Positions 1 through 18,857 of a stretch of 64,000 bases of DNA are shown here, piece after piece; position 1 is the stretch's first letter; each line of letters opens with the position of its first letter. This DNA comes from an uncultured Methanoregulaceae archaeon (GTDB lineage Archaea; Halobacteriota; Methanomicrobia; Methanomicrobiales; Methanospirillaceae), in the NCBI GenBank assembly GCA_963701095.1, contig OY969564.1:1792001-1856000 (forward strand). Direction: 5' to 3'. A program made the translations under genes and the position numbers. The notes under the pieces are model-generated. The model did no database searches and was not told the origin of the DNA. It saw nothing but the letters and a program-made list of their open reading frames with translations.

Positions 1-265
1 CGGTGCCAATATCAAGGACACGGGATCCGTTGGGAATAGCTAAAGCAGCGGCGCGGGCACCATCGTCACTGTTGTGCTTTTTCCTGCCTTTCATGTAGAC
101 GCTATCAATCATTTTTCTGTTTTTCCAGAACTGGTGGGCATTACCATATCCCGGCACAGCACAGTGGGCCAGTTTCAGTTTACGCCACTGTTCCCTCCAG
201 AAAAAGGGATCTTGTTTTGGGAATGCAGGCTTCTTGAGCTCAGCAGCAATAGTTCGTGATTTCAT
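1..265 (-). CDS. Class I SAM-dependent methyltransferase, 5' part (runs off the window; apparent frameshift)
   Basis: Manual translation from ATG 265 gives MKSRTIAAELKKPAFPKQDPFFWREQWRK...FWKN, then in a shifted frame AIPNGSRVLDIGT; paralogous to the methyltransferases at 2864-3834 and 6580-7428. Confidence 0.75.
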   Translation of the reverse strand, partial: MKSRTIAAELKKPAFPKQDPFFWREQWRKLKLAHCAVPGYGNAHQFWKNRKMIDSVYMKGRKKHNSDDGARAAALAIPNGSRVLDIGT

Positions 266-288
266 GTAAACACAATGTTTTCTCTTTG

Positions 289-1139
289 TTAGTTATCGTC
301 CGAATCTGATACCGGAACCGTTCCCCCGGATTTTTCCAATGCGTCCAGTGGATTGGGAGCTGTTCCGGTCACGATCGCGACCGTGACATCGAGGTAGTTT
401 CCTTGTATCGTAATCTGGAACTGGCCTGAGCTGTACACGGGGATAAAGCGTGGGCCAGGTAATGAGGTAGTACTTACCGTAGTCTGGCCGTTAACTGACG
501 TGGTTGTATATCCAGTTGTGGAAATCTCGTAGTGGCCGATATCGGAGTGTACTGCCGGCCATACCCATCCTCTGCCACAATCTCATTGGTCTGGTTGTCC
601 CGGATGGTGATCGACATATACGGGTTGTTTACCGGAACAAGAATCGTTCCTCTGCATGAATCGGGATCTGCGAGACAGTCAAACTTGGGATTGACCATAT
701 ACACAACATACAAGGGTCCCTGTGCTACATTTACGAGAAGACCTACTGCATTGCCGGTAAGCGTATAGGTCTTGGTAAATTGCGGTCTCAGGTACTGGAA
801 TGCAGGCTGGAGAGGCGTTTCATTGATTTTAGTCGCGTTAGGAAAAACATACGGATCTGGCGTCACGTCGGGTGTTACCTCAGTAACGATATCTGACATG
901 GCAGGGGTCATAAAAACACCCGGATCTGCTGTTAAATTACTTTGCGGGATCACAGATGGTGAGGTGTTTGGAATGGCTGTTACCACTGGCGTGATAGATA
1001 TGTTGCCGGTTGCCGATCCCCCGCTAATGGCATTCTGGGCGATTTTGATACACCCGGTTGAACCTGCCATGAGAACGATTAGGAGGAAAAGACCAAGCGG
1101 GAGGCATCCTGCCGGCGCCTTTCTTTTCTCAATCCTCAT
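289..1139 (-). CDS. Putative lipoprotein, Pro/Thr-rich linker, unknown function (frameshift near 540)
   Basis: ORF 474-1178 has a hydrophobic signal and lipobox-like GSTGC; the reading continues in another frame (PGPRFIPVYSSGQFQITIQGNYLDVTVAI) to TAA at 289-291. Confidence 0.65.
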
Positions 1140-1187
1140 AATATTCATTTCCTGCGGGGTGTGTCCGTGTGATTTCAACCATCTCCC

Positions 1188-2867
1188 TCAAGTCCCACCT
1201 TTAAGAACAACAACTTCCGCAACGGTGTTTGCATATGCATCGTCTTCGCCCCCGTAACTCATCTGGCCGAGGGAAAGACCCGGCCCTGTCAGATCGAGAT
1301 AATAGTACTTCTTTCCATCGATCGGGTAATAGTACCCGTTGCAGTTATCACAGGCTACCCCGACGATTGCATGACCGGCGTCCCTGCCAGCCACTTGGGG
1401 TAAAAGCACGATCGCAACATCGTAGTTCATATCTTTAAGAAGGGCTGCAGCAAGGATTGAATCATCAATGCAGTCACCGTTTCCTTCAACAAGGGTCTCG
1501 ACCGGGTATTTCCAGTAATCATTTGCATCAGTCGTTGTCTGTCCGGTCGCCGGATCGGTATGCAGTGCATAGGGTATTGACTGCACAAACGCAGTGACCG
1601 TGTGATAATCATCCCTGGCTGCCAGGTTCTGGTTGCCACTGGTGTCCTTGAGCTGCCCGATCAGGTCATAGAGGTAGAATTGGTCCTCATCGCTGAGCGT
1701 ATAATTGTCAAGCGCGGTTGCATTTGTTGGATGCGTCTGGTTTTTGTAATAGTAATACAGGCTTTTTGGAATATGCAGGGTTACCGATTCCGCACGTCCC
1801 CGTGAAAACCAGCTGTATGTTTTCTCGAATACCTGGTCCGTTCCGGCTGAGGTATCATTGCCTCCTGAGTTGTAACTCAGAAGGGAAGGCTTACTGGTAT
1901 CGTTGGGATCCGTGCTGAGCGTCGCAAAAATTTCCAACGTTTCCCCGCCGGTAAGATTAAAAGAGGCATCCTGGGTCGTGTAATTAGGTTTCTGAAAATC
2001 AAGGCTGTAATATCCCGCAGGAACACCTTCAAAGTTTGCAGGAGTCATGGTTTTGTAGGTGCCATTTAGGAACAACGCAGCGCCGTCCGGTGAGGAATCG
2101 ATAATAATGGTACCGGTATCGGGGATTTTTTCAAGATCTGCCTGTACAAGCCCGGATGTGCCACCCTGAACCACAATGGTCTGCGTATAATTCATATACC
2201 CCGGTTTCTGGACGATGAGGGTGTGGTTGCCGGCAATAACACTTGAAAACAGTGTAGGCGTTGTTCCAAAAAGGGTCCCGTCAAGGTAAGCAGTTGCATT
2301 TCCCGGAGATGATACCACATCCAGGAATCCGGTTTGAGGGACCGGGACCAGGAACTCGTTGTAGGTAGGAATCATTCCGGGTCCGGCGGTTACAGTGTCA
2401 GTATAATCCTCATAGCCGGATTTACGGATCAGGATTGCATGGGGACCCGGATAAAGTGCATCAATCAGGAGTGGTGTTGTTCCCTGCTGCAGTATCCCAT
2501 CAACAAAGATGCTCCCTCCGGGAGGGTCCGAGGTGATGTAAACGCTCCCTCGATCATCTGTGCGCTGGAGGTTTGCCACAATTGCCTGGGGAATTCCGGG
2601 TTCCAGTGTCACATCATCGATGTAATCAGCATAGCCATTTGCACTCATTATGATGGTATGGTTGCCGCAGGGAAGTTCAAGTTCTTCTTGAGGGACAGTG
2701 CCAATCAGGGTTCCGTCAATGCTTATTGCCGCACCGTCGGGAATAGAAAGCGCGGTGAGTGTACACGAATCTGTAGATGCGGCTGCTGGAACAAGAAAAA
2801 GAACCTGCATGAAGAGCAGGATGATAATAGGAATTAAAAACCGGGTTTTCATTTTTTCCCTCGTCAA
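1188..2867 (-). CDS. Secreted PEGA-repeat protein with C-terminal transglutaminase-like (Cys-His-Asp) domain
   Basis: Signal peptide; four PEGA-like repeats (S.P.GA..x.DG...GT.P...G.H.I...K.GY); C-terminal YPVETLV..GDCIDDSIL, GHAIVG and YLD motifs. Confidence 0.8.
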   Translation of the reverse strand: MTREKMKTRFLIPIIILLFMQVLFLVPAAASTDSCTLTALSIPDGAAISIDGTLIGTVPQEELELPCGNHTIIMSANGYADYIDDVTLEPGIPQAIVANLQRTDDRGSVYITSDPPGGSIFVDGILQQGTTPLLIDALYPGPHAILIRKSGYEDYTDTVTAGPGMIPTYNEFLVPVPQTGFLDVVSSPGNATAYLDGTLFGTTPTLFSSVIAGNHTLIVQKPGYMNYTQTIVVQGGTSGLVQADLEKIPDTGTIIIDSSPDGAALFLNGTYKTMTPANFEGVPAGYYSLDFQKPNYTTQDASFNLTGGETLEIFATLSTDPNDTSKPSLLSYNSGGNDTSAGTDQVFEKTYSWFSRGRAESVTLHIPKSLYYYYKNQTHPTNATALDNYTLSDEDQFYLYDLIGQLKDTSGNQNLAARDDYHTVTAFVQSIPYALHTDPATGQTTTDANDYWKYPVETLVEGNGDCIDDSILAAALLKDMNYDVAIVLLPQVAGRDAGHAIVGVACDNCNGYYYPIDGKKYYYLDLTGPGLSLGQMSYGGEDDAYANTVAEVVVLKGGT

Positions 2868-3834
2868 GATGGTCTAGTTTTTATGACCGGGTGACATGCA
2901 CTCGATGCATGGTTGTTATCACTTGACTTTTGTTGGACGCCGGACTCAGTTTTAACATTTTCCGACCGCTGGTCCGGAGCATTCCACCAGATATGGGCAC
3001 CGAGAGCACGGCCGTCGACGAAGTACCCATTTTCGGTTTTCTTCAATGTACGGTGGAAATACTCGCGAAGGATGTCCATCTGCTGAGGTGTTGTACAGTT
3101 CATGCGGCCACTGAATTCAGTAACTGCATCCTCAAGTGAAGGATAGACCGCAGGATCGCACCGGGTTCAACGGTAAGGTTTGCGTAAATCCCCATCTCGC
3201 AAAGCGCCTGCCAGAGACAGTCTGAAGTCGGTTCACCGCAGAAGTCCGACCCGTGCAGCTGGTTCCATACGCCGGCATTGACCTGTGCCCAAAGGGGTTG
3301 GGTTAAAAACCAGAAAATATGGACAGTTCCCCGGCATGACTGCTGCATTTTCAAAATGGCCTCACCGATATCGGTAACCATGAGGCTGTAGGAAGCGACG
3401 ACTGCATCGAAAGGTACGCCAAGTTCTTCTAGTGTCACGTCCTCCCACCGTTTGGGAATGAGGGTGATCTCCCGGCATTTTTCTTCCCGCTGGTACTCAC
3501 GCAGGGCCTCTCCCATGACCGGCGAGGGCTCAATAGCCGTGACGTCGCACCCATGCGCAGCGAGGGGAACTGCGAGCACCCCTGTGCCTGCACCGATATC
3601 CAGGACCCGTGATCCGTCCCTGACATTCATTCCCGCGATCCGGGTTTCGGCCATATCCCGCCATTCGTTTAGATCGTGAATAAAGTGACTTTTTATTGCC
3701 TTTTTATCGTTCCAGAAGCTATTGCCCTCAGTCTTACGTGTTTCAAGAAGGGCGAGCCTCTTTCGCTGCCACCGGTCCCGCCAGTAGGTTTGTCCATAAT
3801 TCGGTGTTCCGTGGACCGAACCATCCGGTGTCAT
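2864..3834 (-). CDS. Class I SAM-dependent methyltransferase (split ORFs 3100-3834 and 2864-3103)
   Basis: VLDIGAGTG motif I, AIEPS, KRWEDV, FDAVVASYSL; the C-terminal piece ends ...HIWW like paralog 6580-7428 (KIWW). Confidence 0.85.
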
Positions 3835-3971
3835 GTCTATATTATTGTACTAACTTTTTCATTTATTAAATACAATGATTAAACGTTGCTATAGATGCAT
3901 CAAGTCTTTATGCATGGGATCTTTGAAGTCTCCATTTTACCTATAAAGGTGAGAATCCCGGGGTATTACCA

Positions 3972-5671
3972 TTAAGTTTCAGGAAGGCCTACCTCGTGAT
4001 TAAATTTGGTATATTCCTCAGGAAGGGAATATTGAAAGATATCCGGGTGGAGGATATTTGCAACATCCATAAGCCCGAGAGCCCACCGCTGGGAACTGCC
4101 AGCGAGGTCCGTATTAAGGGTGTATACCCTCCCGGTATCAAGTGCCCGGCAGGATATCCCGAGTTCTTTGCACGTACTGATGAATTCTGCAACGGGAGTT
4201 GCGAAATTGCCCGATATAATAATAACCTCAGGATCAAGCGCATTGAGTTCTTCGACCGTGTATTCCGGGTTTGCACTTTCAGTTAAGCCGAGTTCCTTGT
4301 TAAGGCTCATCCCCCCCGCAATCTCGACAAGCTGATTTTCGGTTTTTACGGCATAGAGCGGGAGGAGCGGGTGACTGAGAACCGCGTAAACCCGGGGTTT
4401 TTCAGCAGTCGAAGCCTTTTGCTGGATATCAGTTATGACATGCTGTGTGTATCCTATCAAATGGTTTGCTTGGTCTTCGTGGTGAGCGAGCGTGGCGAGA
4501 TACCGTATCATATCGAAATATTTTCCGTACGTGCTCATATGATCCTGGAAATTGCTGATATAGCCGTTTTCGATGACTGTATTGCAGATCCGGTCGATTA
4601 CCCGTTCATCGGTTACTCCGAGAGTACCTAATATTTTGCTGATAAACTGCATGCCCATGATCGACCGGTACCCCCCAAGGATCTGGACTTCGCCTTCGAA
4701 AATGGGATCGATCTCACCCCGAAAGGGGAAGTGGTAACCGCAGCTGCATTTGCCATCCGACGGGCATGAGAGCACCCGGGCCGCCATCGGACCGAAAAAG
4801 ACCCGGTGGATGATCGTTTTCCCGCAAACCGGGCAACGTGAATCCAGTTCAGTCGTCGCACACGTGTTGAACAGGTACACATGATCGAAGTACCGGCGCA
4901 GATCGGCGCAGAGCTGCTCTCCTTGAGCCCGGTGGGAGCGATAGGTTCGAGGTTTTCATGGGTCGCCATAAAGCGCATCACCTGGAACGGGATAGATCGC
5001 GAGATTACACTGATCCGCTCTGCCGCTCCGATTACTTCCAGCTCCCTTCCGTTGAGGTACATAACGGAAACCTCGACGGCGACTCCGGCATCGTAGAGGG
5101 TTTTCAGGTTGCGGTAGGTCGGTACTGCCGATACTGCCCCACACTCGCGGTACCGTTCGTCAGTCGACCCTTTGAGGCCAATATTGACAAAGTCCAGGTA
5201 CGGCAGCATCATCTGCAACGTTGCTTCTGTCATGTAACCGTTGCTGGAACAACCGACAAGGAATCCCTCCTTTTTTGCGGCCTGTGCGACTTTTAAAAAA
5301 GTGGGGAGGGAAACCGTGGGTTCATTCAGGCAGAACGTGATGCCCCGGCAGGCATATCCCCGTGCTATGGCGAGGATCTCATCTGGTGTGTGGTGGTTGA
5401 GGATATCCTGCAGGGTTCCTTTACGGATAGTCTGGAATTCAGATATGCATCCTTCACAGGTAAAGTTGCAACCTATGGTGCTGAGGAGGAGGAAGATACT
5501 ATTGGGGTAAAAGTGAAGCATCGGAATAGATTCGCTTGAGACCGGGTAGATATTGAGATAACTGTCTGGATAGTTCTCCGTAATCGTGCCCATACTGTTT
5601 CGATACATACGGCAATACCCGTTCTGGCTTTCCTGTATATCACAGGCCCGTTCACAATAGCTGCATCTCAT
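3972..5671 (-). CDS. Radical SAM enzyme (PFL-activase/AmmeMemoRadiSam-like) fused to a C-terminal Fe/B12-type substrate-binding-protein-like domain (frameshift near 4920)
   Basis: N-terminal CSYC..C..GYC, CNFTCEGC (CxxxCxxC), NEPT; second ORF YLFN..CPVCG..CSCG is the usual end of this family, then KPRVY..AGG..EELNALDPEVIII typical of TroA/BtuF-like binding proteins. Confidence 0.8.
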
Positions 5672-6571
5672 GGAAATTTTCCTTTGACGTGTTTTGGTAC
5701 TGTTTGATGACTTCCTGCCATGGTGGATTTCCGATAGACATTTGTCTTCTCTGCAGATTTTCCGAAGAAATGGTAACCGGAGCCTCCTTCAGCAATGGTG
5801 TCGAGCAAGACATCTGGAGCGATGACCACGTCACCGCCCAGCAACGTAACGCCGCGCCGGAAGAACGCATCCGGAAGCATGCTGGCAGTCGGTCCAACAA
5901 CAATGATTGTTGTCCCGGGTTTAGCGGTGGCAAGTAAAGGTTCAAGTGTATTATTGAGAAGGGTTGTACCCGTGATGATGAGCATGTCCGCCCTTTGGAT
6001 TGCTGCCTCAGTCTGATTTTTTGGGATGATAAAGGGGAGTTCATCAGGTTTTAGGGTGCGTGGGTCGAGTTCAAGGATCCCAAACGGCTTTCCCCGGGTT
6101 TTCAGTCGCTTGAGGATTGGGACAAGTGCCCCGACCACGACTACATATCCCTCATCAGGAATAGGGGTTGTGTCGAGTACATCTTTGCCGGTTTCCCTGC
6201 CGAAATGCAGATCGACCCTCCTCTTCCTGCAGCTTTCCGAGAGTGCGCTTACAATAGCGATGCCAACCGCCTTCTTCAATGGGGGTGCTTGTGGAAGATC
6301 CCTAATGAATTCAGCAGCACTGCAGCCGGTAAATCGTCCTGGGAAAGGCATGGCCCGGGCAGAACTGGGGCAGCAGACTGCGTCCGGGATCTCTTTTATA
6401 GGCGTAAAGCAGATGCCCCCGGAACCGTCGCTGAGTTTCACACCGGTAAAGAAAATCCCTATGACGACTCGTTCAATAGAAATTTTTTCGAAATCGCTGC
6501 AAAGGGTTTTCCGTATCTGTGTGATGGTCTCTTCAAGAATCGAACCGGGCCGGTTGAGGTACTTCTGCCAT
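5668..6571 (-). CDS. DUF364-like Rossmann-fold protein (putative metal-chelation family)
   Basis: IERVVIGIFFTGVKLS, VVVVGA, ELDP, ADMLIITGTTLLNNTLE.LL, VGPTAS, GV..LGG; ATG at 6571 is one frameshift away from ORF 5668-6441. Confidence 0.8.
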
Positions 6572-6579
6572 ATGTATCT

Positions 6580-7428
6580 TTAACCCTCTTTTTCCCACCA
6601 GATCTTTGCCTGTGATGACTGCATTTTCATGAAATACTGTCCATTTTCGCACTGGAGCGTTTTCTGAAGATGTTTTTTGAGTACGGCGATTTGCCTCTCC
6701 TCTTTGAGATGCAGGACTTCCCGTTGATCGTCCACTGCTTCGTCGAAACTTGAAAAACTGATCGTACGATCCGCACGGGAAATTTCAACATTGGCGGAAA
6801 CTCCCATCTGGTAGAGCAGATTGAAAATAATGTTGGGCGTCCGGTTTGTAGCTGGTTGTTCTCCAAAGAGTTCCTCCCATATTTCGAGATATTGTCTATG
6901 ACGAGGCGACACTAGATCTGCAAACCAGAAGATATACACGTATTTCCGGGAAACGGCGTCCATCTTTTCAATGGCATCCCGAAGGTCAGGTACGCCGAGA
7001 GAATAGGATGCAACTACCACGTCATACGGCGGGTTGAGATCTCGTTGGATATCCACATCTTCCCACGTTTTCTGGATGGTTGTAATATTGTGAATTTCGC
7101 TATCACGGATATTGTTGTGAAGGCATTCGAGCATCCCGGAAGAGGGCTCAACGGCCGTAACATGCCGGACCATTCCGGAGAGCGGGATAGCAAGTGTCCC
7201 GGGGCCGGCGCCGATATCGAGGACCCTGGAGTCCGGGTCGATCTTCATGGCAGAGATGCGTTCCCGTGCATCTCTCCAGTTGTCTTCTTTGACCATATGG
7301 TCGAATTTTCTGCACCGTGCTGGATCCGACCATCTCGCGGCGCAGCTCGCACATTCGTCTTGGGCTCTTTTCTCTTTTTCCCTCTCTTTCCAGACTTCGT
7401 TCCAGTCTATGGCACTACTGTCCTGCAT
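6580..7428 (-). CDS. Class I SAM-dependent methyltransferase
   Basis: DWNEVWK N-terminus, VLDIGAGPGTL, AVEPS, YDVVVASYSL. Confidence 0.9.
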   Translation of the reverse strand: MQDSSAIDWNEVWKEREKEKRAQDECASCAARWSDPARCRKFDHMVKEDNWRDARERISAMKIDPDSRVLDIGAGPGTLAIPLSGMVRHVTAVEPSSGMLECLHNNIRDSEIHNITTIQKTWEDVDIQRDLNPPYDVVVASYSLGVPDLRDAIEKMDAVSRKYVYIFWFADLVSPRHRQYLEIWEELFGEQPATNRTPNIIFNLLYQMGVSANVEISRADRTISFSSFDEAVDDQREVLHLKEERQIAVLKKHLQKTLQCENGQYFMKMQSSQAKIWWEKEG

Positions 7429-7450
7429 GTCCTGTAGTATCTGTATTTGT

Positions 7451-7471
7451 TTAACAACTGTATATGGTTAA
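7451..7471. promoter_or_regulatory. Putative operator palindrome TTAACAA-N7-TGGTTAA
   Basis: Near-perfect 7-7-7 inverted repeat 23-43 bp upstream of the ATG at 7428; matches the site at 11184. Confidence 0.5.
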
Positions 7472-7501
7472 TTGAATTATTTTGATAAATGATTAATTTG
7501 A

Positions 7502-7948
7502 TCAATGTATTTTCGGCGCCCAAAATCCGGCGAGACCGGTTGAAATCATTGGATAATACAAGAATATAATTGCGGCAATGAAGTAAGTGATCATCAGATA
7601 ACCGAACAATCTGGCGGCACGTACCCCTTTAAAGGGGTGTCGGTTATTGTTGATCTCATATGCGATCCAGATGGCTGCCATAATACTATAGAGCCATACA
7701 AAGGATCGGAAGAAGGATCACGAGATGGGGAAGGGCGTTCTGGTACGGTTCCAGGAGAGCAAGCCAGTAGGTTCCTTTGAACGCATCTTGAACCGTACCT
7801 ATAAGGGCAAAGAAAAAGAGCGCTGCAAGGATGAGCCAGCCCCTTATATACTCCCCACTGTTGTAAACCGGGACAGACTGCAGAAACTGCACCAGGTCCC
7901 TGCCAGTTTTTCCCTTTTAATTGATAGGTAACAATCACGGGATACCAT
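7502..7948 (-). pseudogene. Small multi-TM membrane protein interrupted by several frameshifts (real decay or assembly error)
   Basis: Fragments SAVCPGL / YNSGEYIRGWLILAALFFFAL / MAAIWIAYE...IIFLYYP..KIH* lie in different frames just downstream of the pilin genes. Confidence 0.45.
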
Positions 7949-7956
7949 GATGCTAG

Positions 7957-8592
7957 TTACCCGGTGATCGTGACTACGGGTTCCGAGATCCGGATTCCGC
8001 TCGAAGAGTCAATTATATCGAGATAGAATCTCTTCCCAATATTGGTTGGATTTACGAACATGATCGTCCATAAATAGAAATCGGGATCGCCGCTGAAGGT
8101 CCATTCGCCATTGACTAAGGAAAAGTATCCTTTTGAAGGATATGGTTATGATGAATTCTCAAACGTTGCAGGATTACAGTTGGTGATGTTCACGTACCAA
8201 GTGTCTCTCGGGTTGAACGATGTGATGTCGTAACCGTCTATATTATCCGTTACAGGGTTGCGGAAAGCAATCGGTGTCCCAGCGGAATTGGTAACATTTG
8301 AAAGGTCGACGACACTTATGGTGCTTGTACCAAGGTTCGGGCCGAAAGAAGGTCCGTTTCTGGTCTCTATAATAAGACTGCTTGTCGGGAGCGCCTCGCC
8401 GCCGGCATTGGTGATTGTCATCCCTGAAGTGACACTGAATGTACCTATGATGACTGCAGTGGGTGCTTTCGTCTGGCCATTCACGAGTCCACCAGAAAAT
8501 CCGCTAACGATCGCAGCTATGATGATGGTCACAACGAGCATCAACATAACACCGACTATCGGCGAGGCTGCATGTTCGCTGACCGTTTTCAT
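7957..8592 (-). CDS. Archaeal type IV pilin (DUF1628-type), copy B' (frameshift near 8150)
   Basis: Class III signal HAA/SPIVGVMLML; the continuation FVNPTNIGKRFYLDIIDSSSG..VTITG* matches the C-terminus of copy B. Confidence 0.85.
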
Positions 8593-9356
8593 GATCCCTC
8601 CGTAACCGGGACGCCCTCACTGAAGATCGTAGCACCTGTAGGAGTATATATCACCTTGACATCCACCTTATCCCCACCCCGGAGTTGCTCCCAGCCGCCA
8701 CCGAGAACAGATATCGTTGGATCTACCGTACTACCTGCAGTAAATTCAGAGCCGGAGACATAGGAATAGGGGGTTACACCGTTGTATCCCCCATTGAAAT
8801 ATGAACCTCGGGGTGGACCGTAAGCTGGATAGGCAAAAAGGCCGACGCCCGCTTGAAGCGTGTAATTCCCGAAATAACCATCAGGATAATTCCAGTCCTC
8901 TGTACCCTGAATAATTCCTTTTCCCACTCCAAAAGGTACTGTCGCACCAGTCCAAAGTTCACCCACGTTCTGGCTGTTCGGTAGTGAGGTGTTTCCCCCG
9001 ATAAAGAAGGTTCCATCAGCAATTTTGGCCATAGATGTACCTGCCAAATCTGCACTGGTGTTGTCCTTCATCGTGGTGGTCCAGGAAGTCACAATCTTGA
9101 GCTGATTCGTATTGATCGGCTGACTTACCCCAAGTACATTTCCTGAGAATCCACTATCCAAATAACTTCCAGTATTAACAATCTGAACATCCATGGTAAG
9201 GGTCGGGGATTTTTGATGCCCCCCTACCAACCCCCCCGCAAATCCGCTGACGACCGCTGCTATGAGGACAGTCACAATCAGCATCAGCATAACGCCAACG
9301 ACCGGCGAGACTCCATCTTCGTCATTTTTTTCCATCATTCGTTTCAGATACTGCAT
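8589..9356 (-). CDS. Archaeal type IV pilin (DUF1628-type), copy A'
   Basis: EDG/VSPVVGVMLMLIVTVLIAAVVSGF class III signal; C-terminal VKVIYTPTG.TIF. Confidence 0.9.
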   Translation of the reverse strand: MQYLKRMMEKNDEDGVSPVVGVMLMLIVTVLIAAVVSGFAGGLVGGHQKSPTLTMDVQIVNTGSYLDSGFSGNVLGVSQPINTNQLKIVTSWTTTMKDNTSADLAGTSMAKIADGTFFIGGNTSLPNSQNVGELWTGATVPFGVGKGIIQGTEDWNYPDGYFGNYTLQAGVGLFAYPAYGPPRGSYFNGGYNGVTPYSYVSGSEFTAGSTVDPTISVLGGGWEQLRGGDKVDVKVIYTPTGATIFSEGVPVTEGS

Positions 9357-9633
9357 ATTGTTCCCTCTGAAATTCTTGCGCTTACCTCAACAAACGAACG
9401 CTCTTTTATATAAATCATAAACTGAAAAGAGGCTGGATCTCCTAGATGAAATGCTGAATATATCGGTTGTGTAATTTTTCCATATGAAGGGTGGTCAAAT
9501 CGCATCATTCACCCACTCATAGGAAAAATAAAAAAGTGAGATGAGGATGTTATTCCGGCAAGAACGCAATCGTCCCTGTCAGGTTTCCCTTTTTTCCAAA
9601 TGATTTACAGCAAATGAAACTCCACAATTCTGA

Positions 9634-10275
9634 TTATCCAGTGATCGTGACCTGCGACTGCGAGATCACGGCTCCGCTTGCCTGGTCATAGACATCGAGA
9701 TAGAACGCCTTCCCGATGTTTGCAGGGTTCACGAAGTTGAGGGCCCAGAATCCATCCGTTGGAGTGGTGAAACCCCATACACCGTTATTATTGGCGGGGA
9801 GGATATAGGATCCATGTTTCGACAGGGCCGATGTGGCGGACTCTGATAATACTGGGTTGCAGTTTGTGATGTTCAAGTACCATGTGTCGCCCGGGTTGAA
9901 CGAAGTGATATTATATCCATCGATCGATTGGGTACTCGGGTTCCAGAACGCAACCGGTGTGCCGGCCGAGTTAGTAACGAGCGTGAGGTTTAAATCACTT
10001 ACTGTAGTTGACCCAAGTCCTGGGCCGAATGTCGGTCCGTTCGATGTCGTGATAAGGATACTGCTTGATGGAAGTGAGTCTCCACCCGCATTAGTAATGG
10101 TCATACCTGAAGTAACACTGAAGGTTCCCGTGATAGTTGCCTGCGGTGCTTTTGTCTGGCCTTTCGCAAGGCCGCCAGCAAATCCGCTGACAACTGCTGC
10201 GATAATAATAGTCACGACCAGCATCAGCATGACACCGACGACTGGTGAGACTGCATTTTCCTTGTAATGCTTCAT
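9634..10275 (-). CDS. Archaeal type IV pilin (DUF1628-type), copy B
   Basis: MKHYKENA/VSPVVGVMLMLVVTIIIAAVVS. Confidence 0.9.
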   Translation of the reverse strand: MKHYKENAVSPVVGVMLMLVVTIIIAAVVSGFAGGLAKGQTKAPQATITGTFSVTSGMTITNAGGDSLPSSSILITTSNGPTFGPGLGSTTVSDLNLTLVTNSAGTPVAFWNPSTQSIDGYNITSFNPGDTWYLNITNCNPVLSESATSALSKHGSYILPANNNGVWGFTTPTDGFWALNFVNPANIGKAFYLDVYDQASGAVISQSQVTITG

Positions 10276-10279
10276 AATT

Positions 10280-11089
10280 TTAAGCCTCCGTAACCGGGAC
10301 ATCCTTGCTAAAGATTGTAGTACCCGTTGGCGTATAGATTACCTTGACGTGCACTATATCACCTACTGCGAGCTGTTCCCAGCCCCCACCCAGAACTGCT
10401 ATTGCGGGATCAACACCATTCGCCATGAAGCTCGATCCACCGACATAATCATTCGGTAGAATGTACCCTCCGTTAGTGAGAGATGCATGCCCGGGAGACC
10501 CGGCCATTGTCTCTCCGCCTCCCGCGCCGAAGGGTACGGCAAAGAGAGTAACCCCCTGCTGAAGTGTGTACTGCCCGAAGTAGCTGGAATTATATTCGTA
10601 AGGATCGGTAATATCCGAAACAAAGGAGCCCATTCCAAACGGTGCAACCGAGGCAGCTATTTGTGTCGGATAAGTCCCCATGCCAGGATTAAAGTTACCT
10701 AGATTCGGGGCATTCGGTAACGATGAGTTTCCACCACTAAAGACAGTCCCATTCGCTATTGCTGCCTGAGAAGGAGAAAGGTCATAGCTTGCATCGTTTT
10801 TCATCGTAGTAGTCCACGTGGTAACAATTTTGAGCTGCGAGGTAGCAATAGGCTGGCTCACTGAGTTCACGTTTGCGAAGAACCCGCTAGCGATATAACT
10901 CCCGGAGTTCACCACCTTGACATCCATCGAAATTGTCGGGGACTTTTGCTGCCCTCCGACTAGGCCGCCTGAAAATCCACTGACGACCGCTGCGATGATG
11001 ATTGTCACGACCAGCATCAGCATAACTCCAACGACCGGTGAGACCGCATCTTCGCCCTTTTTTCTTGTCATTCGTTTAAGATAATGCAT
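10280..11089 (-). CDS. Archaeal type IV pilin (DUF1628-type), copy A
   Basis: MHYLKRMTRKKGEDA/VSPVVGVMLML; start chosen by alignment to MQYLKRM of copy A'. Confidence 0.9.
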   Translation of the reverse strand: MHYLKRMTRKKGEDAVSPVVGVMLMLVVTIIIAAVVSGFSGGLVGGQQKSPTISMDVKVVNSGSYIASGFFANVNSVSQPIATSQLKIVTTWTTTMKNDASYDLSPSQAAIANGTVFSGGNSSLPNAPNLGNFNPGMGTYPTQIAASVAPFGMGSFVSDITDPYEYNSSYFGQYTLQQGVTLFAVPFGAGGGETMAGSPGHASLTNGGYILPNDYVGGSSFMANGVDPAIAVLGGGWEQLAVGDIVHVKVIYTPTGTTIFSKDVPVTEA

Positions 11090-11183
11090 GTTTTCCCTCT
11101 TTGAAATGCCTGAATTGCAGTGGTGGATCAATTTCTCGGGATCAAAACCACCATGCAAGTTTATTCGTTGTAATTTACTATAT

Positions 11184-11204
11184 TTAACAATTATCATTTG
11201 TTAA
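11184..11204. promoter_or_regulatory. Perfect palindrome TTAACAA-N7-TTGTTAA overlapping a TATA-like element of the pilin operon
   Basis: Sequence ttaacaattatcatttgttaa; minus-strand TTAAATATAG at 11178-11187 overlaps it; a weaker TTAA-N13-TTAA lies at 11229-11249. Confidence 0.55.
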
Positions 11205-11445
11205 TCAATTATTATTAATATAAACCGGTTAACTTTGCATCATTTTTAACAGAGATATTTTTTTATAGTAATTAACATCATTAGGCTACGAATTAAGTCG
11301 TTAAAAATATGATCTGGAGCGAAGAATTTATAATATATATATAGTATTTTAATATAAGATTCGTCATTTTTCATAATGGTGATCCCCAGCTGGAATAATA
11401 AAATAGAAAGTATTGTTATTCCCCAATTTGCTAAAAATAATTTAA

Positions 11446-11895
11446 TTATGATGCGTTAGGTTCAGCGACTATTGGAGTAGTTTCCACCATGGCTGGTGCT
11501 TCCGGTGGTACATAATATTTTGCGTTCTTTTTCTTGGTGAGCCAAACCAGTTTTCCCTCGACAAACCCAAATGATTCCATAAATATGACCTGGACTGTCT
11601 TTGGAATTCCCGAAACTACCGCTGCGTTCGGGACGATCAGGAACTGTCCTTTTGGCGCCTTTCCTTTCATGGATGCGACCAGTGCCTCAAGCGCGAGCGT
11701 CGATGGATCCTCATCATAGGAAACTGCAAGTGCCACGTTCTCGGTCCTGCCCCTGACATCCCGGGAAAGAATGAATGTCATATCTCGTCTATAGGGTGAT
11801 GGAACCTCTCGGCACGACCAGCCATCCCACGCTTTGAAATGTGCGCGAATCTCCTTTTGAGCAAAGGTCTGCATGATATCCTTAGATGAACCCAT
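11446..11895 (-). CDS. Hypothetical protein
   Basis: 149-aa ORF of normal composition between AT-rich intergenic regions. Confidence 0.65.
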   Translation of the reverse strand: MGSSKDIMQTFAQKEIRAHFKAWDGWSCREVPSPYRRDMTFILSRDVRGRTENVALAVSYDEDPSTLALEALVASMKGKAPKGQFLIVPNAAVVSGIPKTVQVIFMESFGFVEGKLVWLTKKKNAKYYVPPEAPAMVETTPIVAEPNAS

Positions 11896-12169: not shown

Positions 12170-13819
12170 ATGAACCATTCCGTCCGTCACAACCATCAAT
12201 CTATCAGTATTTTTTTTGCCATCTGTGGCATTAGCATCCTGTTATTTTGTTTTATAGCTGGGTGCGTGGATGATTCCTCATCTTCAGCAAATATAGGAAA
12301 CCTGTCAAACGTCCCTGCAAACGATGTCATCATTCCCGTGAATTCCCCTTCGTCGATGAGCTATACCAGCAATATGCAGAAAGGGGGAGTTCTGTCAGGC
12401 TCGCTCATCTATGAAGGCCTTGTAATCAAAGACATTGACGGCAAATTTGATCCTGCACTTGCACAGAGCTGGAATGTTTCAGATGATGCAAAGACATGGA
12501 CATTCCATTTGGTCCAAGATGCAACATGGAGTGATGGTGCCTCCTTCTCCTGCGCCGACGTCAAGTTCACCAATGATTACATGAAAGCCCACAATCTCAC
12601 TATGGGATATGTTCTTTCGGATGTCCAGTCGGTAGAATGCCCGGACAATAATACGGCAGTTTTTACCCTTATTACACCTTATTCCGCCTTCCTTGACCAG
12701 ATCTCACGAACACCGGGAATTACCATTTCGCCGGAACATATCTGGCAGAACATCGCTGATCCCCAGCATTACCAGGACAGCCAGATGATCGGAACCGGCC
12801 CATTTATCTTTACCCAGGCCGTTCCAGGCTATTACCAGTTTACAACCAATGAAAACTATCATGGCAGGGTTCCGGTCATTCCTGGTGTGGTCCTCAAAAT
12901 GATCACCAATCCTGACAGCCAGGTACTGGCATTGGAAAACGGTGAGATTGATGTGGTCTCTGGAATTACACCGGCAATGGCGCAGAGCTTGTCCGGTGAT
13001 TCAAATATTTCGGTCTACTCGATAAACGACACAGGTGAATGTGAAGTTGCTTTCAACATGGCTCGATATCCCGCTAATATCTCGGCATTCCGGCATGCGA
13101 TGAGCCACGCGGTCGATCGAGACACGATTAGCTCAATATTTGGCACCGGTAGGCCGACTGAAACAACGTTCCTGTTGCCGACTCTTGCAGGGGATGCTGT
13201 TAATCCCGTTGATGTTGGTATGTACAATTATAATCTGACAGAGGCTCAGGAAATGCTTGCAGCTGCAGGTTTTGTCAAGAACTCCGATGGGATGCTGGTC
13301 GGTCCTGACGGAAATCCTATAACAATCACCATTCCTCTCGGCAGCAAAGGTGACGCTGTGAATGGCAAGGTCATCCCTGTGCTCAAGAATGACTGGGCGC
13401 AGCTGGGGATCAGCGTGAGCACAGTATATTATGAGGATCCAACCCAATACCGAACAGCTTCAAACGCCAACCCGGTGTTCATCGATTCCTTCCCGGTTCT
13501 CCTTCACGATGATCCGGATGCCCTAGGTAATTTTGCAGTCACGCCATTACAGGAAACAAACTACTACAACTACAATAACCCGGAATACAACAGCCTTGTG
13601 GCTCAGGTTAAAAACGCCACGAACCAGACTGCAATTCTAGAGATGGTATATAAAGAGCAGGATCTCCTCGCCCAAGATGTGCCGACGGTACCGGTTGCAA
13701 GTACCGATACCCTCGTGGCGTACCGGACAGACCGGTTCACCGGTTGGGACATCGGGCCTGGATACCACAGTATCCTGGATCCAAAAGTTTTAGAGAACTT
13801 AACACCGGTTCAGCCCTGA
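12170..13819 (+). CDS. ABC transporter substrate-binding lipoprotein, family 5 (Dpp/Opp/Nik)
   Basis: Lipobox IAGC; IYEGLV, PALAQSW.VS.D.KTWTF.L, WSDG, IGTGPF. Confidence 0.92.
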   Translation: MNHSVRHNHQSISIFFAICGISILLFCFIAGCVDDSSSSANIGNLSNVPANDVIIPVNSPSSMSYTSNMQKGGVLSGSLIYEGLVIKDIDGKFDPALAQSWNVSDDAKTWTFHLVQDATWSDGASFSCADVKFTNDYMKAHNLTMGYVLSDVQSVECPDNNTAVFTLITPYSAFLDQISRTPGITISPEHIWQNIADPQHYQDSQMIGTGPFIFTQAVPGYYQFTTNENYHGRVPVIPGVVLKMITNPDSQVLALENGEIDVVSGITPAMAQSLSGDSNISVYSINDTGECEVAFNMARYPANISAFRHAMSHAVDRDTISSIFGTGRPTETTFLLPTLAGDAVNPVDVGMYNYNLTEAQEMLAAAGFVKNSDGMLVGPDGNPITITIPLGSKGDAVNGKVIPVLKNDWAQLGISVSTVYYEDPTQYRTASNANPVFIDSFPVLLHDDPDALGNFAVTPLQETNYYNYNNPEYNSLVAQVKNATNQTAILEMVYKEQDLLAQDVPTVPVASTDTLVAYRTDRFTGWDIGPGYHSILDPKVLENLTPVQP

Positions 13820-14015
13820 TAAGCGATTGTTCCCATGAGAAAAAAGACTCCAAAAAAGGAACCATTTTTTTCTGCGAATACAGCTTGGGTTCATGACGTC
13901 CCTTGGATTGACTTATTCCCGTATGAATCGGTTTTCATTTCCGTAATCGAAAAATTCAAAGGAACATAACGATGACCGTCCTCAACCATTCACAGGGATA
14001 TGGAGGAAAACGCGT

Positions 14016-14998
14016 ATGATAAGCGGGAAATATCTTTTGCGCCGCCTCTGTTACAGCGGGGCTTCGTTTTTCGTCTGCATCACCATTACCTTTTTCCTTC
14101 TCCATCTCATGCCCGGCGACTATATCACCAACTATCTTCTCTCGCTTTCAAACACCATCCCCCAAGCAGCAGTGGATCAGTTCCGCCACCAGTTCGGTCT
14201 TGATCTTCCCATCAGTGACCAGTATATCTTCTATATTGTAAACATACTCCACGGACAATGGGGTTACTCGTATGCTTACGGCCAGCCTGTGTTCTCGATG
14301 ATTATGGAAAAACTCAGCTGGTCACTCATCATTATAGTACCGGCGACAGTTCTGGGGATCCTGATCGGCATAATTATCGGCGCATGGTCCGGGTGGAGAT
14401 CCGGGGAAAAAAGGATCTGGCAATATTCAATATCATGATTGTGATCCGGGCGATCCCAGAGTTCTGGTGGGCGATCATGGCCGTGCTCGTCTTCTCCTTT
14501 TATCTCCGATGGTTTCCCCTCGGAGGATTCAGCAGCATCAGTGTTCTTTCAACTGGTCTTTCTATCCCGGACCTGTTGTACCACGCCCTCCTCCCTGTCG
14601 CCCTAATGACGTTTTTTATTGCAACCGGGAATTACTACGTCATGCGGAATTCGATGATTTCCGTTATAGGAGAGGATTACATCACCACCGCACGTGCAAA
14701 GGGGCTCGATGAGCGGGGGATCCTCTGGCGTCATGCCCTTAAAAACGCCCTCCTTCCCATAGTGACAATCACGACGTTCCAGTGCGCTGCAATCATTATG
14801 GGAAACGTGTTTATTGAGACTGTTTTTTCCTGGCCAGGGATCGGGTTCCTGACTACTGAAGCTCTTACGAATCGAGATCTTCCTCTGCTCGAAGGCATAT
14901 TCCTCCTGGATTCGCTGATGACCATATGTGCTATGCTGCTTGCTGACATCCTCTCATCGATGATCGATCCGCGGATCAGGATGGGAAATGATGAGTAG
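14016..14998 (+). CDS. ABC transporter permease, DppB/NikB-like (frameshift in the G/A run near 14405-14412)
   Basis: LMPGD, FGLD.P..QY, EDYITTARAKGL EAA loop, ETVFSWPGIG. Confidence 0.9.
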
Positions 14999-15812
14999 GC
15001 GAGCAATATTTTGGGTGGGAATTGCAGTCCTGCTCGCATATATAGTCATAGCCCTCGCAGCCCCACTGATTGCACCTCAGGGTCCTCAGGCTATTACCGG
15101 CAAACCACTTCAGCCACCAGATAATCATCATCTGTTTGGGACAAACGAAGTGGGTCAGGACATCTTTGCCCAGCTTGTCTTTGGGGCCCGTATTACCTTG
15201 CTCTTCGGATTCTGCTCTGCGGCTCTTGCTGTCGGGATTAGCACAAGCGTTGGGATAGTTATAGGGTATTATGGCGGTATTGTCGACGAGATTGTCTGTA
15301 GAGCTATTGATGTGGTCATGCCTATTCCGATGTTTGTCCTTCTTATCGTCCTCACAACATTCTTTTCGCCGGGCATCCTTCAGGTCAGCCTGCTTATGGG
15401 GCTGATGGGCAGTGTTTATGGCATACGCATCATGCGTGCGCAGGTCCTATCGGTCGCCCGTACCGGTTTCGTGGAAGGTGCGAGGGCGATTGGCGCCTCT
15501 GATTTTCGTATCATGTCCCGGCATATCCTGCCCAACGTAATGTCGCTGGTTATGGTCAAATTTGTAAGTTCATCCCAGCAGCTCCTCCTCATGGGTGTCG
15601 GCCTAAGTTTTATTGGACTTTGGGATACAACGACCGTGGACTGGGGGACGATGATTCAGAACGCGTATTCGCAGGGTGGTATGGCATTGGGTCTTTGGTG
15701 GTGGATACTGCCTCCAGGGATTGCAGTAATCGGGATTTCCCTCGCCCTTGCAATGATCGGGTACAGTTTCGAAGAGAAGTTTAACCCCCGTGTAGAGGTG
15801 AACAGGATATGA
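14988..15812 (+). CDS. ABC transporter permease, DppC/NikC-like
   Basis: HLFGTNEVGQDI, FVEGARAIGAS, RHILPN, WWWILPPG. Confidence 0.92.
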   Translation: MMSRRAIFWVGIAVLLAYIVIALAAPLIAPQGPQAITGKPLQPPDNHHLFGTNEVGQDIFAQLVFGARITLLFGFCSAALAVGISTSVGIVIGYYGGIVDEIVCRAIDVVMPIPMFVLLIVLTTFFSPGILQVSLLMGLMGSVYGIRIMRAQVLSVARTGFVEGARAIGASDFRIMSRHILPNVMSLVMVKFVSSSQQLLLMGVGLSFIGLWDTTTVDWGTMIQNAYSQGGMALGLWWWILPPGIAVIGISLALAMIGYSFEEKFNPRVEVNRI

Positions 15813-16804
15813 ACATTCCCGATTCGCTTGAGAACGCAAACAGGAACAATCCGGAGGCAAAAGGAATGGCACTGATCCAAATCGCTGGCCTGAAAGTGGT
15901 TTTCTCCACACGTTCTGAAAAAATAAGGGCTGTGGACACGGTTGATCTTACCATTAATGAAGGTGACACATTAGGCCTTATTGGTGAATCCGGGTGTGGA
16001 AAGACGGTTATGGGTATGGCCATGATGGGTCTTCTTCCGACAAACGCTGATATCAGTGGCATCATCCGTTATGCCGGGAAGGATCTCCTTACCGCACCCG
16101 AATCTATGATGCAAAAGATGAGGGGAAGAGAGATTGCCATGATCTCCCAGAACTCCGCAAACACGCTCAACCCGGTAATGAAAGTGGGTGACCAGATCGC
16201 AGAACCACTCCTGATCCACCATCTGTATTCCGCGGACGAGGCGAAAAAGGAGGTAATACGGCTGCTTGGCGCTCTTGGATTTGAGGATCCCGTGCAGGCT
16301 GCAGGCCGTTATCCCCACGAATTTTCTGGGGGGATGCGGGAACGCGTTCTTATTGCGCTTGCCCTTATCTGCAATCCCCGGGTTATTATCGCCGATGAGC
16401 CCACATCAGGGCTGGATGCGGAAGTCAAGATCGAAATTCTTCATCTGATCAAAGAGAAGGTTACCGGGAACCGGACTTTGTTTCTTATCACCCACGATCT
16501 GGGAACAGCTTCGTTTCTCTGTACCCGGCTCGTCGTTATGTATGCAGGGGAGATCGTAGAAACAGGGCCGACAAAAGAAGTGCTTTCCCGACCATTCCAT
16601 CCCTATACCAAAGGTCTCCTTGCATCTCTTCCTTCTGCCGGCCTCAATACTATCCCAGGGACTAGTCCTTCACCTTCATCACTCCCGGCGGGCTGCAGGT
16701 TTTCTGAACGATGCATAGCGGCGATGGAGCGATGCAGGAAAGAACACCCCCCCATGAAAGAGGTTGGTGATAATCGCCAGGTACGGTGTTTCCTTTATGA
16801 TTGA
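15809..16804 (+). CDS. ABC transporter ATP-binding protein, DppD-like
   Basis: GESGCGKT, FSGGMRER, IADEPT, HPYT, C-terminal GCRF..RC...C Cys tail. Confidence 0.93.
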   Translation: MNIPDSLENANRNNPEAKGMALIQIAGLKVVFSTRSEKIRAVDTVDLTINEGDTLGLIGESGCGKTVMGMAMMGLLPTNADISGIIRYAGKDLLTAPESMMQKMRGREIAMISQNSANTLNPVMKVGDQIAEPLLIHHLYSADEAKKEVIRLLGALGFEDPVQAAGRYPHEFSGGMRERVLIALALICNPRVIIADEPTSGLDAEVKIEILHLIKEKVTGNRTLFLITHDLGTASFLCTRLVVMYAGEIVETGPTKEVLSRPFHPYTKGLLASLPSAGLNTIPGTSPSPSSLPAGCRFSERCIAAMERCRKEHPPMKEVGDNRQVRCFLYD

Positions 16805-17603
16805 ACTTGAAGAAATAACCAAAGTTTATTCAAGAGGTTTTCTTCGCCGCCAAAAAACCATCGCAGTAAATAATGTCTCAATCTCGATTAAAAGGGGTAA
16901 AACGCTGGGCCTTGTCGGGGAGAGCGGGAGCGGTAAGTCTACGCTAGGCCGGATTGCACTCCGGCTTATCGAACCTTCGAGCGGGACGGTCCGGTTCGAC
17001 GGCATTGATCTGACCCGGCTTAAGGGATCGAAACTCCGGAAACTCAGGCCACGGATGCAAATATTGTTTCAGGACCCCGATACTTCGCTTGATCCACGTA
17101 TGACCATCCGGGAGTGTATGGCAGAACCCCTAATCATAAGCAATCGAGCCGGCCCAGAAGAGATGGAAGATCGTATTCTTGGCCTGCTCGGGCAGGTCGG
17201 GCTCCAATCCGACCTGATCGACCGGTATCCGTTCGAAATATCCGGTGGCCAGAAGCAGAGAGTTGCACTTGCCAGAGTCCTTTCCCTCGACCCCGATTTT
17301 ATCGTTGCCGATGAACCCACTGCCGCTCTTGATCTCTCGGTTCAGGCGCAGGTGCTCAGTCTGATAAAGTCCATTCAGAAAAAGTCCAATCTTACGATCC
17401 TTTTCATCTCCCACGACCTCCAGGTTATCGAACAGATGAGTGATTCTATTGCAGTAATGCATCACGGGTCGATAATTGAACAGGGAACACCGCAGGACAT
17501 TCTCCATATACCGATGGAACACTATACACGGAATCTGGTGGCGGCGGCATATGGAAGTGACGCGTGGCTGGGAAAAATTAAAGATTTGCGAGCCAAATCA
17601 TAG
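16797..17603 (+). CDS. ABC transporter ATP-binding protein, DppF/NikE-like
   Basis: GESGSGKS, ISGGQKQR, VADEPT, ISHDL. Confidence 0.93.
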   Translation: MIELEEITKVYSRGFLRRQKTIAVNNVSISIKRGKTLGLVGESGSGKSTLGRIALRLIEPSSGTVRFDGIDLTRLKGSKLRKLRPRMQILFQDPDTSLDPRMTIRECMAEPLIISNRAGPEEMEDRILGLLGQVGLQSDLIDRYPFEISGGQKQRVALARVLSLDPDFIVADEPTAALDLSVQAQVLSLIKSIQKKSNLTILFISHDLQVIEQMSDSIAVMHHGSIIEQGTPQDILHIPMEHYTRNLVAAAYGSDAWLGKIKDLRAKS

Positions 17604-18789: not shown

Positions 18790-18857
18790 CGAAAATCCTG
18801 TGATGTGAGGAGGACCGTGAATCGTCGAGCCCCACCGACCTGTCAATACCAATTACA

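Follow-up and report, generated by a model that had tools for sequence, protein, structure and literature searches.

The DNA analysed here, referred to as the window, is a stretch of 64,000 nucleotides (nt) from an uncultured Methanoregulaceae archaeon (assembly GCA_963701095.1, contig OY969564.1, positions 1,792,001 to 1,856,000), whose first 11 kb or so carry a run of pilin, methyltransferase, DUF364, radical S-adenosylmethionine (SAM) and surface protein genes. Our analysis suggests that this stretch is probably made up of three juxtaposed units on one strand, namely the pilins, an enzyme module and an insertion, and does not constitute one system. The enzyme module, in which a fusion of a radical SAM enzyme with part of a substrate-binding protein is accompanied by class I methyltransferases and a DUF364 protein, is real and widespread and is conserved in methanogens, anaerobic methanotrophic (ANME) archaea, Desulfobacterota and Spirochaetota. 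Judged from sequence and gene context, its probable task is the processing, in the cytoplasm, of a metal chelate or cofactor that the cell has imported.

In order of transcription the run comprises the pilin genes pilA1, pilB1, pilA2 and pilB2, the remnant of a membrane protein gene, the methyltransferase MTase4a, a DUF4213+DUF364 protein, the Radical_SAM/Peripla_BP_2 fusion, MTase4b, a PEGA/DUF553 protein, a lipobox protein and MTase4c. Open reading frame (ORF) listing and scans against Pfam and NCBIfam placed all genes that had been named in the initial annotation on the minus strand within the first 11 kb, so that its account of gene content and single-strand order is largely borne out.

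The fusion (3972..5671) combines a Radical_SAM domain (PF04055, 52.3 bits against 29.5) at 4628-5671 with a Peripla_BP_2 domain (PF01497, 39.5 bits against a gathering value of 27.5) at 3972-4880. Both domains of the radical SAM/binding-protein fusion described in the initial annotation are therefore present, but the two halves lie in different frames in the window, while an intact relative of 567 amino acids (aa), P0001, shares 91–92% identity with the window fusion over both halves. The protein starts with MRCSYCERACD and has no signal peptide. In an alignment of 31 sequences the CX3CX2C motif (C68, C72 and C75) is invariant and 14 further cysteines are conserved; the fusion also carries an N-terminal group of four cysteines and a C-terminal CPxC...CxC group.

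An AlphaFold model of P0001, computed with the 31-sequence alignment, reached a pLDDT of 86.3 and a pTM of 0.84. Its core resembles the PFL-activating enzyme (TM 0.72–0.75) and QueE, the whole range being TM 0.67–0.75, whereas the C-terminal half can be aligned with no more than about 170–210 of the approximately 320 residues of class III binding proteins. Fold matches of this C-terminal part include 4pag, 4ovk, 4hn9, Lmo2184, YiuA, the haem-binding proteins ShuT, RhuT and BhuT, the molybdate-binding protein MolA, and CeuE. The sequence profile agrees, as positions of about 372–565 match binding-protein chains from approximately residue 120 onward. In the model, the C-terminal domain corresponds to the backbone helix and the C-lobe of a binding protein, the N-lobe being replaced by helices, and with its partial fold and missing signal peptide the fusion is not a two-lobed, exported class III binding protein.

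With the PFL-activating enzyme and AmmeMemoRadiSam the fusion has in common the core fold, an N-terminal cysteine cluster and a C-terminal CxxC...CxC pattern; it scores, however, below the cut-off values of both AmmeMemoRadiSam (TIGR04337, 87.1 bits against 220) and the glycyl-radical enzyme activases (TIGR02494, 29.2 bits against 174), so that the likeness to the latter lies in the fold alone, and its additional domain derived from a binding protein is absent from these enzymes. Neither a Pfam scan of either half nor the precomputed domains of 82 relatives contained a B12-binding domain, which separates the fusion from the class B methylases. NCBIfam holds no model specific for the fusion, and a search of the full-text literature found no paper describing it, PMC11484787 proving irrelevant.

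When the binding-protein half was searched among longer proteins, 82 fused proteins with a radical SAM and a binding domain were obtained (545–856 aa), which occur in Methanomicrobiales and also in bacteria, among them Sulfurospirillum, Anaerovorax and Desulfosporosinus. The longest, P0007 (856 aa), is a natural fusion of a radical SAM domain, a binding domain and a methyltransferase of the MTase4 type. At the level of sequence, this triple fusion argues for a partnership between the fusion and the methyltransferase.

For a comparative census, one genome per species was scanned with the 31-protein alignment, yielding 235 relatives, and the best 79 loci (80 relatives fetched) were analyzed with up to 10 kb of flanking sequence; all linkage counts run from the fusion outward. 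Counts are based on our own ORF calls, on clustering, on recurrent clusters named by Pfam and on cluster hidden Markov models (HMMs), among which those of class I methyltransferases hit each other's members. Many of the loci lie on short contigs, and in 25 of the 79 the upstream sequence is shorter than 5.5 kb.

Any class I methyltransferase is found near the fusion in 63 of the 79 loci. Where the fusion ORF is intact (69 loci), a methyltransferase lies directly upstream on the same strand (at most 60 nt away) in 35 cases and directly downstream in 11. DUF364 was found in 20/79 loci, and in 11 of the 18 loci of the window's clade. The most frequent transport genes are a FecCD permease (39/79) and a standalone Peripla_BP_2 protein (38/79), and most of the standalone entries listed have a hydrophobic leader or a lipobox-like N-terminus, a few being fragments of the fusion. 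Less frequent neighbours are NTPase_1 (15/79), ModA-like (14/79), TOBE (13/79) and ModB-like proteins (12/79), FmdE (8/79), MoeA (6/79), XdhC (5/79), TrmO-like proteins (4/79) and DppA of the Dpp/Nik type (3/79). In the clade to which the window belongs, ModA-like, TOBE, XdhC, MoeA and FmdE genes are found at the flanks.

Several layouts are typical. In Methanohalophilus, ANME-1 and Methanoculleus the order is binding protein, methyltransferase, fusion, FecCD and ATPase; in Methanospirillum it is DUF364-XdhC, NTPase and fusion-methyltransferase, with Mod and TOBE genes nearby, and in one locus (L019) it is DppABCDF-NTPase-fusion. Cultured carriers of the module include Methanospirillum lacunae Ki8-1 (L012) and M. 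stamsii Pt1 (L014). A locus from the Desulfobacterales (L050, 4791-13338) reads ATPase, FecCD, binding protein, TonB receptor, fusion and two methyltransferases, the receptor standing immediately before the fusion. In Desulfobacula (L059, 9327-14763) methyltransferase, fusion and DUF364 follow one another in a row and are succeeded by a multihaem cytochrome-like protein of 769 aa. Gene context in Methanoregula and Methanospirillum points to a role in molybdenum/tungsten handling, and the context elsewhere points to an iron-chelate, haem or corrinoid-type cargo, as far as neighbouring genes can indicate.

Two further features of these neighbourhoods were observed. Four loci (L002, L012, L034 and L039) have three or four paralogous secreted Peripla_BP_2 proteins in a row beside the fusion, which may point to a wide or variable range of cargo. 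Variable extra genes (L002, 11783-13591; L049, 17636-19492 and 12751-15341; L005, 6516-8360) encode an ABC exporter-type protein, three ParA/NifH-like P-loop ATPases and SPFH/Band 7 proteins.

The DUF364 gene of the window (5668..6571; the listed ORF begins only at 6441) encodes a protein with both a DUF4213 and a DUF364 domain (PF13938/PF04016), which score above gathering with 34.1 and 150.6 bits, respectively. It is 85% identical to the DUF364 protein of L017 and matches the PDB entries 3npg and 3l5o. Longer DUF364 fusions were also considered as a Rosetta stone, and the three matches obtained carry unrelated extra domains and are uninformative. According to the accessible text of PMC12930334, the first DUF364 protein with a demonstrated activity cyclises 4''-methyl-SAM, which a radical SAM methylase supplies, and enzymes of the latter kind are found together with DUF364. 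The accessible part of a preprint (bioRxiv 10.1101/2024.03.05.583561) places a DUF364 gene inside a modABC operon and reports its cofitness with nifH, and an association of DUF364 with metal transporters was noted as early as 2010 in the portion available of PMC2954201.

The three methyltransferases of the window are MTase4a (6580..7428, with Methyltransf_25/23 matches at 42–44 bits), MTase4b (2864..3834, with a main ORF at 3100-3834 and a C-terminus provided by a 79-aa ORF at 2864-3103) and MTase4c (2..265), of which only the N-terminus is present, as the gene extends beyond the window edge; it corresponds to residues 21-110 of L001:13123-14154 with 66% identity. In a PDB profile search MTase4 proved to be an ordinary class I methyltransferase. 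An identity as a nicotianamine-, opine- or azetidine-synthase-like enzyme was dropped, since only ordinary class I methyltransferases were found among the best 60 of the 189 PDB matches. The MTase4 cluster was found in 23 loci by clustering and in 32/79 when each protein was assigned to its best HMM (13/18 in clade A and 19/61 in clade B).

Taken together, linkage, domain architecture and the three DUF364-related papers suggest that a metal ligand delivered by an importer is processed in the cytoplasm. In the scheme that we propose, an ABC importer would bring in a small metal-bearing ligand, which would be held in the cytoplasm by the domain derived from a binding protein. The radical SAM core would attack this ligand through a 5'-deoxyadenosyl radical, the partner methyltransferase or methyltransferases would methylate it, DUF364 would add a further SAM-based step, and the outcome would be release of the metal or remodelling of the cofactor. 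Gene identities, architecture and linkage were observed directly, and the class of substrate and each chemical step are predictions from them. That the fusion and its partner methyltransferase form a new kind of import-coupled enzyme, in which a transporter-derived domain receives the chelate and presents it for radical and methyl chemistry while DUF364 adds a SAM-derived step, is a tentative suggestion. As to the initial annotation, its proposal that these enzymes handle a metal chelate or cofactor agrees with the importer context found in other genomes, but the part assigned to a filament does not, as set out below.

Several observations weigh against this interpretation. Different cargoes are indicated by the molybdenum/tungsten context on the one hand and by the FecCD/TonB neighbours on the other. 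Import followed by processing fits the data no better than synthesis of a chelator, and what is predicted is a class of substrate only. In addition, genes of the ABC exporter type are found next to the module in L002 and L049, the enzymes that the radical SAM core resembles most are activases with protein substrates, and the census covers the best 80 of the 235 relatives. Finally, the enzyme module would be inactive in this organism if the reading-frame breaks described below are real.

A more specific alternative, which we regard as possible but do not favour, is that the module salvages or remodels a tetrapyrrole, either haem or a corrinoid, delivered by a BtuCD/Hmu-type importer, and is not related to molybdenum or tungsten; it would then be an anaerobic counterpart of the haem-degrading radical SAM methyltransferases. 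Among the solved structures closest to the C-terminal domain are those of the haem binders IsdE, ShuT, RhuT and BhuT, with BtuF as a weaker match, and the frequency of FecCD (39/79) and the TonB receptor in L050 would suit such a cargo. The best NCBIfam names for the methyltransferases are likewise the corrinoid-associated CpaM and CbiT, although both lie far below their cut-offs (for CpaM, NF043040, 48.8 and 44.6 bits against 180). In the literature, the acronym CpaM was used in unrelated senses only among the 10 papers listed of 1,892. However, no cob, cbi or haem genes were present among the neighbour clusters recurring in at least four loci or among some 30 selected neighbours, and no cobalamin riboswitch was detected in nine bacterial loci; Rfam gave no riboswitch match at all, either in these nine loci at the gathering cut-off or in the window from 1 to 34 kb at E-values up to 0.1. 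Moreover, the ModA-like, TOBE, XdhC, MoeA and FmdE genes around the fusion in the window's clade, together with the presence of MolA among the fold matches, speak against such a cargo.

Radical SAM methyltransferases of the ChuW/HutW type are single HemN-like proteins that are encoded in anaerobic haem-uptake operons. They resemble the present module in that radical SAM chemistry and methyl transfer are encoded in an operon with a binding protein, FecCD, an ATPase and in part TonB, and in that processing takes place in the cytoplasm. The fusion differs from them by its core, which is like that of the PFL activase, and by the half domain of a binding protein, while methyl transfer would reside on separate class I proteins; the likeness is one of gene setting. 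By analogy, the module may work like the radical SAM enzymes of these haem-uptake operons, yet by score or domain content it falls outside AmmeMemoRadiSam, the glycyl-radical activases, the class B methylases and CpaM.

Two other known settings are comparable. In the biosynthesis of 4-methylazetidine-carboxylate, as presented in the accessible text of PMC12930334, the DUF364 protein Orf5 stands beside the radical SAM enzyme BnvC and class I methyltransferase-like proteins and uses a SAM derivative; BnvC is, however, cobalamin-dependent and belongs to a nonribosomal peptide cluster, whereas the present module is found in a metal-transport context and has no detected B12-binding domain. The methanogen molybdate operons with DUF364 (bioRxiv 10.1101/2024.03.05.583561; PMC2954201) are similar in that Mod-type genes adjoin, as in the window's clade, but as far as these sources are accessible the operons they describe are without the radical SAM fusion and the methyltransferases, and the role of DUF364 in them is unproven.

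The second unit consists of the pilins. All four contain a Pilin_N domain (PF07790, 52.1–76.2 bits against a gathering value of 25.2). In detail, pilA1 (10280..11197, 57.5 bits) is a type IV pilin-like gene whose true start is likely the ATG at 11089 (MHYLKRM...), as judged from the N-terminus and tblastn, and pilB1 (9634..10302, 76.2 bits) overlaps its end and is 62% identical to the pilB of L001. They are followed by the tandem duplicates pilA2 (8589..9356, 52.1 bits; direct repeats D2, D3 and D7 with 73–76% DNA identity) and pilB2 (7957..8592), and the two pilA-pilB pairs as a whole are a tandem duplication with 71–80% DNA identity. Each N-terminus contains ...E[DN][AG]VSPVVGVMLMLVVTIIIAAVVSGF..., and all four therefore have what we take to be a class III signal peptide, in which a short charged leader precedes a hydrophobic N-terminal helix.

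An almost identical N-terminal helix, VSPVVGVMLMLVVTIIIAA, is common to all six pilins of the window, namely these four and the pilins at 18858-19562 and 21685-22134. The latter two adjoin T2SSF and T2SSE genes, a TIG-repeat protein (707 aa) and a KaiC-like ATPase. Because of this match to pilins beside T2SSE and T2SSF, the four pilins are assigned to the type IV pilus locus at 17767..32159, and the two tandem pairs would encode subunits for its machinery. This complete locus encodes a DUF4013 protein, the two pilins, the TIG-repeat protein, two T2SSF (22144-23919 and 30225-32159), two T2SSE (23977-26058 and 28517-30228) and the KaiC-like ATPase, so that assembly genes are present. The arrangement is similar to that of archaeal type IV pili with multiple minor pilins, as regards Pilin_N, the conserved hydrophobic N-terminal helix and the nearby T2SSE/T2SSF, but differs in that the pair is tandemly duplicated, that one copy is truncated and that a Dpp/Nik operon stands between the pairs and the machinery.

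The initial annotation had proposed a single regulon responding to nutrient limitation; a dedicated filament, together with surface proteins, would be coupled to the synthesis or capture of a chelate and possibly be served by the Dpp/Nik importer. The same-strand adjacency of pilA-pilB to the enzymes in the window, L001, L005 and L013, and to another fusion paralogue in L049, would fit this proposal, as would the Dpp/Nik genes that adjoin the fusion in L001, L013 and L019. It could also draw on the junctions inside the blocks, which according to ORF coordinates are as short as had been stated, the genes lying 0–12 nt apart or overlapping by 4 nt: the overlaps are those of DUF364 with the radical SAM gene and of pilA2 with pilB2, and the spacing is 8 nt between methyltransferase and DUF364 and 0–12 nt between methyltransferase and PEGA. 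Each block has, however, its own AT-rich gap with TATA-like boxes (277 nt after pilB1 and 137 nt after the fusion), and pilus machinery with matching pilin N-termini is found elsewhere in the window.

Linkage across genomes speaks against a single regulon as well. The neighbourhood analysis suggested at the time, when run from the fusion, found pilins in only 5 of the 79 loci, four of which are of the Methanoregulaceae type. In three of these (L001, L005 and L013, from Methanoregula or Methanoregulaceae) the pilins lie directly upstream of the fusion on the same strand. Of the 54 loci having at least 5.5 kb of upstream sequence, 3 have pilins upstream. A Methanospirillum locus (L007) has one pilin downstream on the opposite strand, and an unclassified Methanomicrobiales archaeon (L049) has a doubled pilA-pilB together with a gene for a 149-aa protein beside a different fusion paralogue, its fusion grouping with Methanoregula paralogues. 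Three of the six Methanoregula-type relatives (L002, L003 and L004) have no pilins, and in L056 and L057 MTase4 adjoins the 149-aa gene with no pilins in between.

Promoter sequences do not connect the blocks either. A 21-bp palindrome had been described for two of the three promoter regions, but an exhaustive palindrome scan found ATGCATCAAGTCTTTATGCAT at 3895-3915, in the intergenic promoter region upstream of MTase4b (3835..3971), as the only one of that length, and no second copy is present in the 64-kb window at up to 3 mismatches. A pattern search for ATGCAT-N7-11-ATGCAT was negative in all 79 related loci. Pairwise comparison of promoters gave no common 21-mer at 5 or fewer mismatches, except for a 17/21 stretch (7896/9572), which is a relic of the tandem duplication of the pilins, and no common 14-mer among five to seven intergenic regions exceeded base-shuffled controls. 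With pilins in 5/79 loci, the PEGA and lipobox protein genes in none and no common operator-like motif, a regulon that couples a filament to chelate chemistry is not supported, and we consider such a pilus-chelate system quite unlikely.

One other element of the same promoter region was noted. A promoter-proximal stretch of 35 nt at 3844-3878 (minus strand) is 100% identical to L001 11970-12004, while the adjacent methyltransferase is only about 79% identical. It has inverted hexamers (ATTGTA/TACAAT) that flank a TATA-like box and is present in only 2 of 80 sources, the window and L001.

The third unit is formed by a secreted protein with four PEGA repeats and a DUF553 transglutaminase-like domain (1188..2867; PEGA 170.6 bits, DUF553 31.6 bits) and by a lipobox protein (289..1178; listed ORF 474-1178) without a Pfam or NCBIfam family. 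Phmmer searches with E-values up to 1e-3 found no homologue of either protein in the 79 loci. In both L001 and L013 two MTase4 paralogues come after the fusion, PEGA and lipobox protein genes are lacking, and FmdE stands immediately behind the paralogues (L001) or at a distance of about 3 kb (L013); in the window the PEGA and lipobox protein genes sit between the methyltransferase paralogues that correspond to this pair. As far as sequence comparison can tell, they are an insertion between methyltransferase paralogues that is seen in none of the 79 loci.

As another alternative, it had been suggested that the enzymes modify the pilins, and such a post-translational role, by methylation or radical-mediated crosslinking, could be extended to the PEGA protein. 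The closest fold relatives of the radical SAM core are activases with protein substrates, and three methyltransferases and a transglutaminase-like domain do stand beside pilins. This idea nevertheless fails because 74 of the 79 loci, including those from Desulfobacterales and Spirochaetota, have the module but no pilins. In addition, the enzyme set is embedded in ABC importer operons, the enzymes have no signal peptides and the transglutaminase gene is absent from all 79 related loci, which leaves this alternative very improbable.

The separation into three juxtaposed units, which we prefer, has to be weighed against opposing observations. In four sequences (the window, L001, L005 and L013) the pilA-pilB genes are directly upstream of the fusion and co-oriented with it, and L049 has the pair beside a different fusion paralogue. 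When mapped onto a FastTree phylogeny of 70 fusions, the presence of pilins, with 6 positives, requires 5 changes of state; the nodes that matter here are unresolved. The patchy pattern of the pilins could therefore be read as a recurrent association instead of inherited synteny, and it is the chief argument that pilins and fusion are associated more than by chance. Likewise, the PEGA and lipobox protein genes follow MTase4b in this genome at close spacing, and the three are probably transcribed together.

Across the 11 kb there are at least six reading-frame breaks and one in-frame stop codon. The frame of the fusion switches at about 4931, where tblastn with the intact P0001 revealed ACCGGG instead of the expected ACCCGGG, one C being missing from a CCC run. 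The DUF364 gene has one extra base (at about 6555), four codons past its ATG at 6571-6569, as seen in a DNA alignment with L017; MTase4b is frameshifted at about 3160, and the tail of the lipobox protein changes frame at about 530–545 and runs to a stop at 289-291. The membrane protein named in the initial annotation is there, but only as the frameshifted C-terminal remnant of a TPR/membrane protein, of which L017 has an intact copy (7508..7868, corresponding to residues 132-254 of L017:395-1159 in two frames, with a switch at about 7701). In pilB2 a TAA lies in frame at 8146-8148, and translation and a single-frame tblastn alignment (8592..7960) show that the same frame continues past it to 7960.

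These breaks and the stop codon could be true mutations, in which case the locus would be decaying and the module and one pilin would be pseudogenes in this organism, and the number of defects within 11 kb is in keeping with this. However, comparable breaks occur in neighbouring genes: DppB, the first permease of the Dpp/Nik operon, is frameshifted at about 14405, as confirmed by a homologue, the Pfam domain of a pilus T2SSE ATPase is divided between two ORFs at 29743, and further overlapping or split ORFs at 55–58 kb suggest more breaks. Five of the six frame-break contexts examined lie in or beside runs of 2–6 identical bases, the T2SSE junction at 29743 having no obvious run. Because the breaks hit unrelated genes across the window and mostly adjoin short homopolymers, they suggest indel errors of the assembly, which we think a likelier cause than decay; the latter appears improbable.

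Upstream of the pilins, a gene at 11446..11895 (minus strand) encodes a conserved archaeal protein of 149 aa without a Pfam family. Homologues were found in four loci, strong ones in L049 (930-1352), L056 (1736-2188) and L057 (1732-2184) and a weak one in L005 (E 7.5e-6). The ESM Atlas gave unnamed archaeal clusters and a weak PD-(D/E)XK lead (0.81–0.83). The family recurs at the edge of metal and enzyme clusters. The Dpp/Nik-type ABC importer (12170..17603, plus strand), with a binding protein, two permeases and two ATPases, is divergent from the enzyme and pilin run. Its binding protein scores below the cut-off values of CntA (110.4 against 800) and NikA (161.8 against 393) and above that of SBP_bac_5 (224 bits). 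Further away, among housekeeping genes, an ORF for an NrpR-like nitrogen regulator with NRD domains (48208-48954) is only 248 aa long and may be a truncated call.

For the window, these results indicate that the packing of pilins and enzymes on one strand reflects local synteny within one archaeal family and not a system. For the module the implications are wider, since the extraction or reshaping of scarce metals (Mo, W, Fe, Ni and Co) from chelates by strict anaerobes is poorly known and the first activity of a DUF364 protein was demonstrated only in 2026. Three conserved enzyme types in or beside metal importer operons, together with a natural triple fusion, offer a concrete and testable entry point. 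If the suggestion of an import-coupled enzyme is true, the module would represent a so far unknown route by which strict anaerobes such as methanogens, ANME archaea and sulfate reducers release or remodel trace-metal cofactors.

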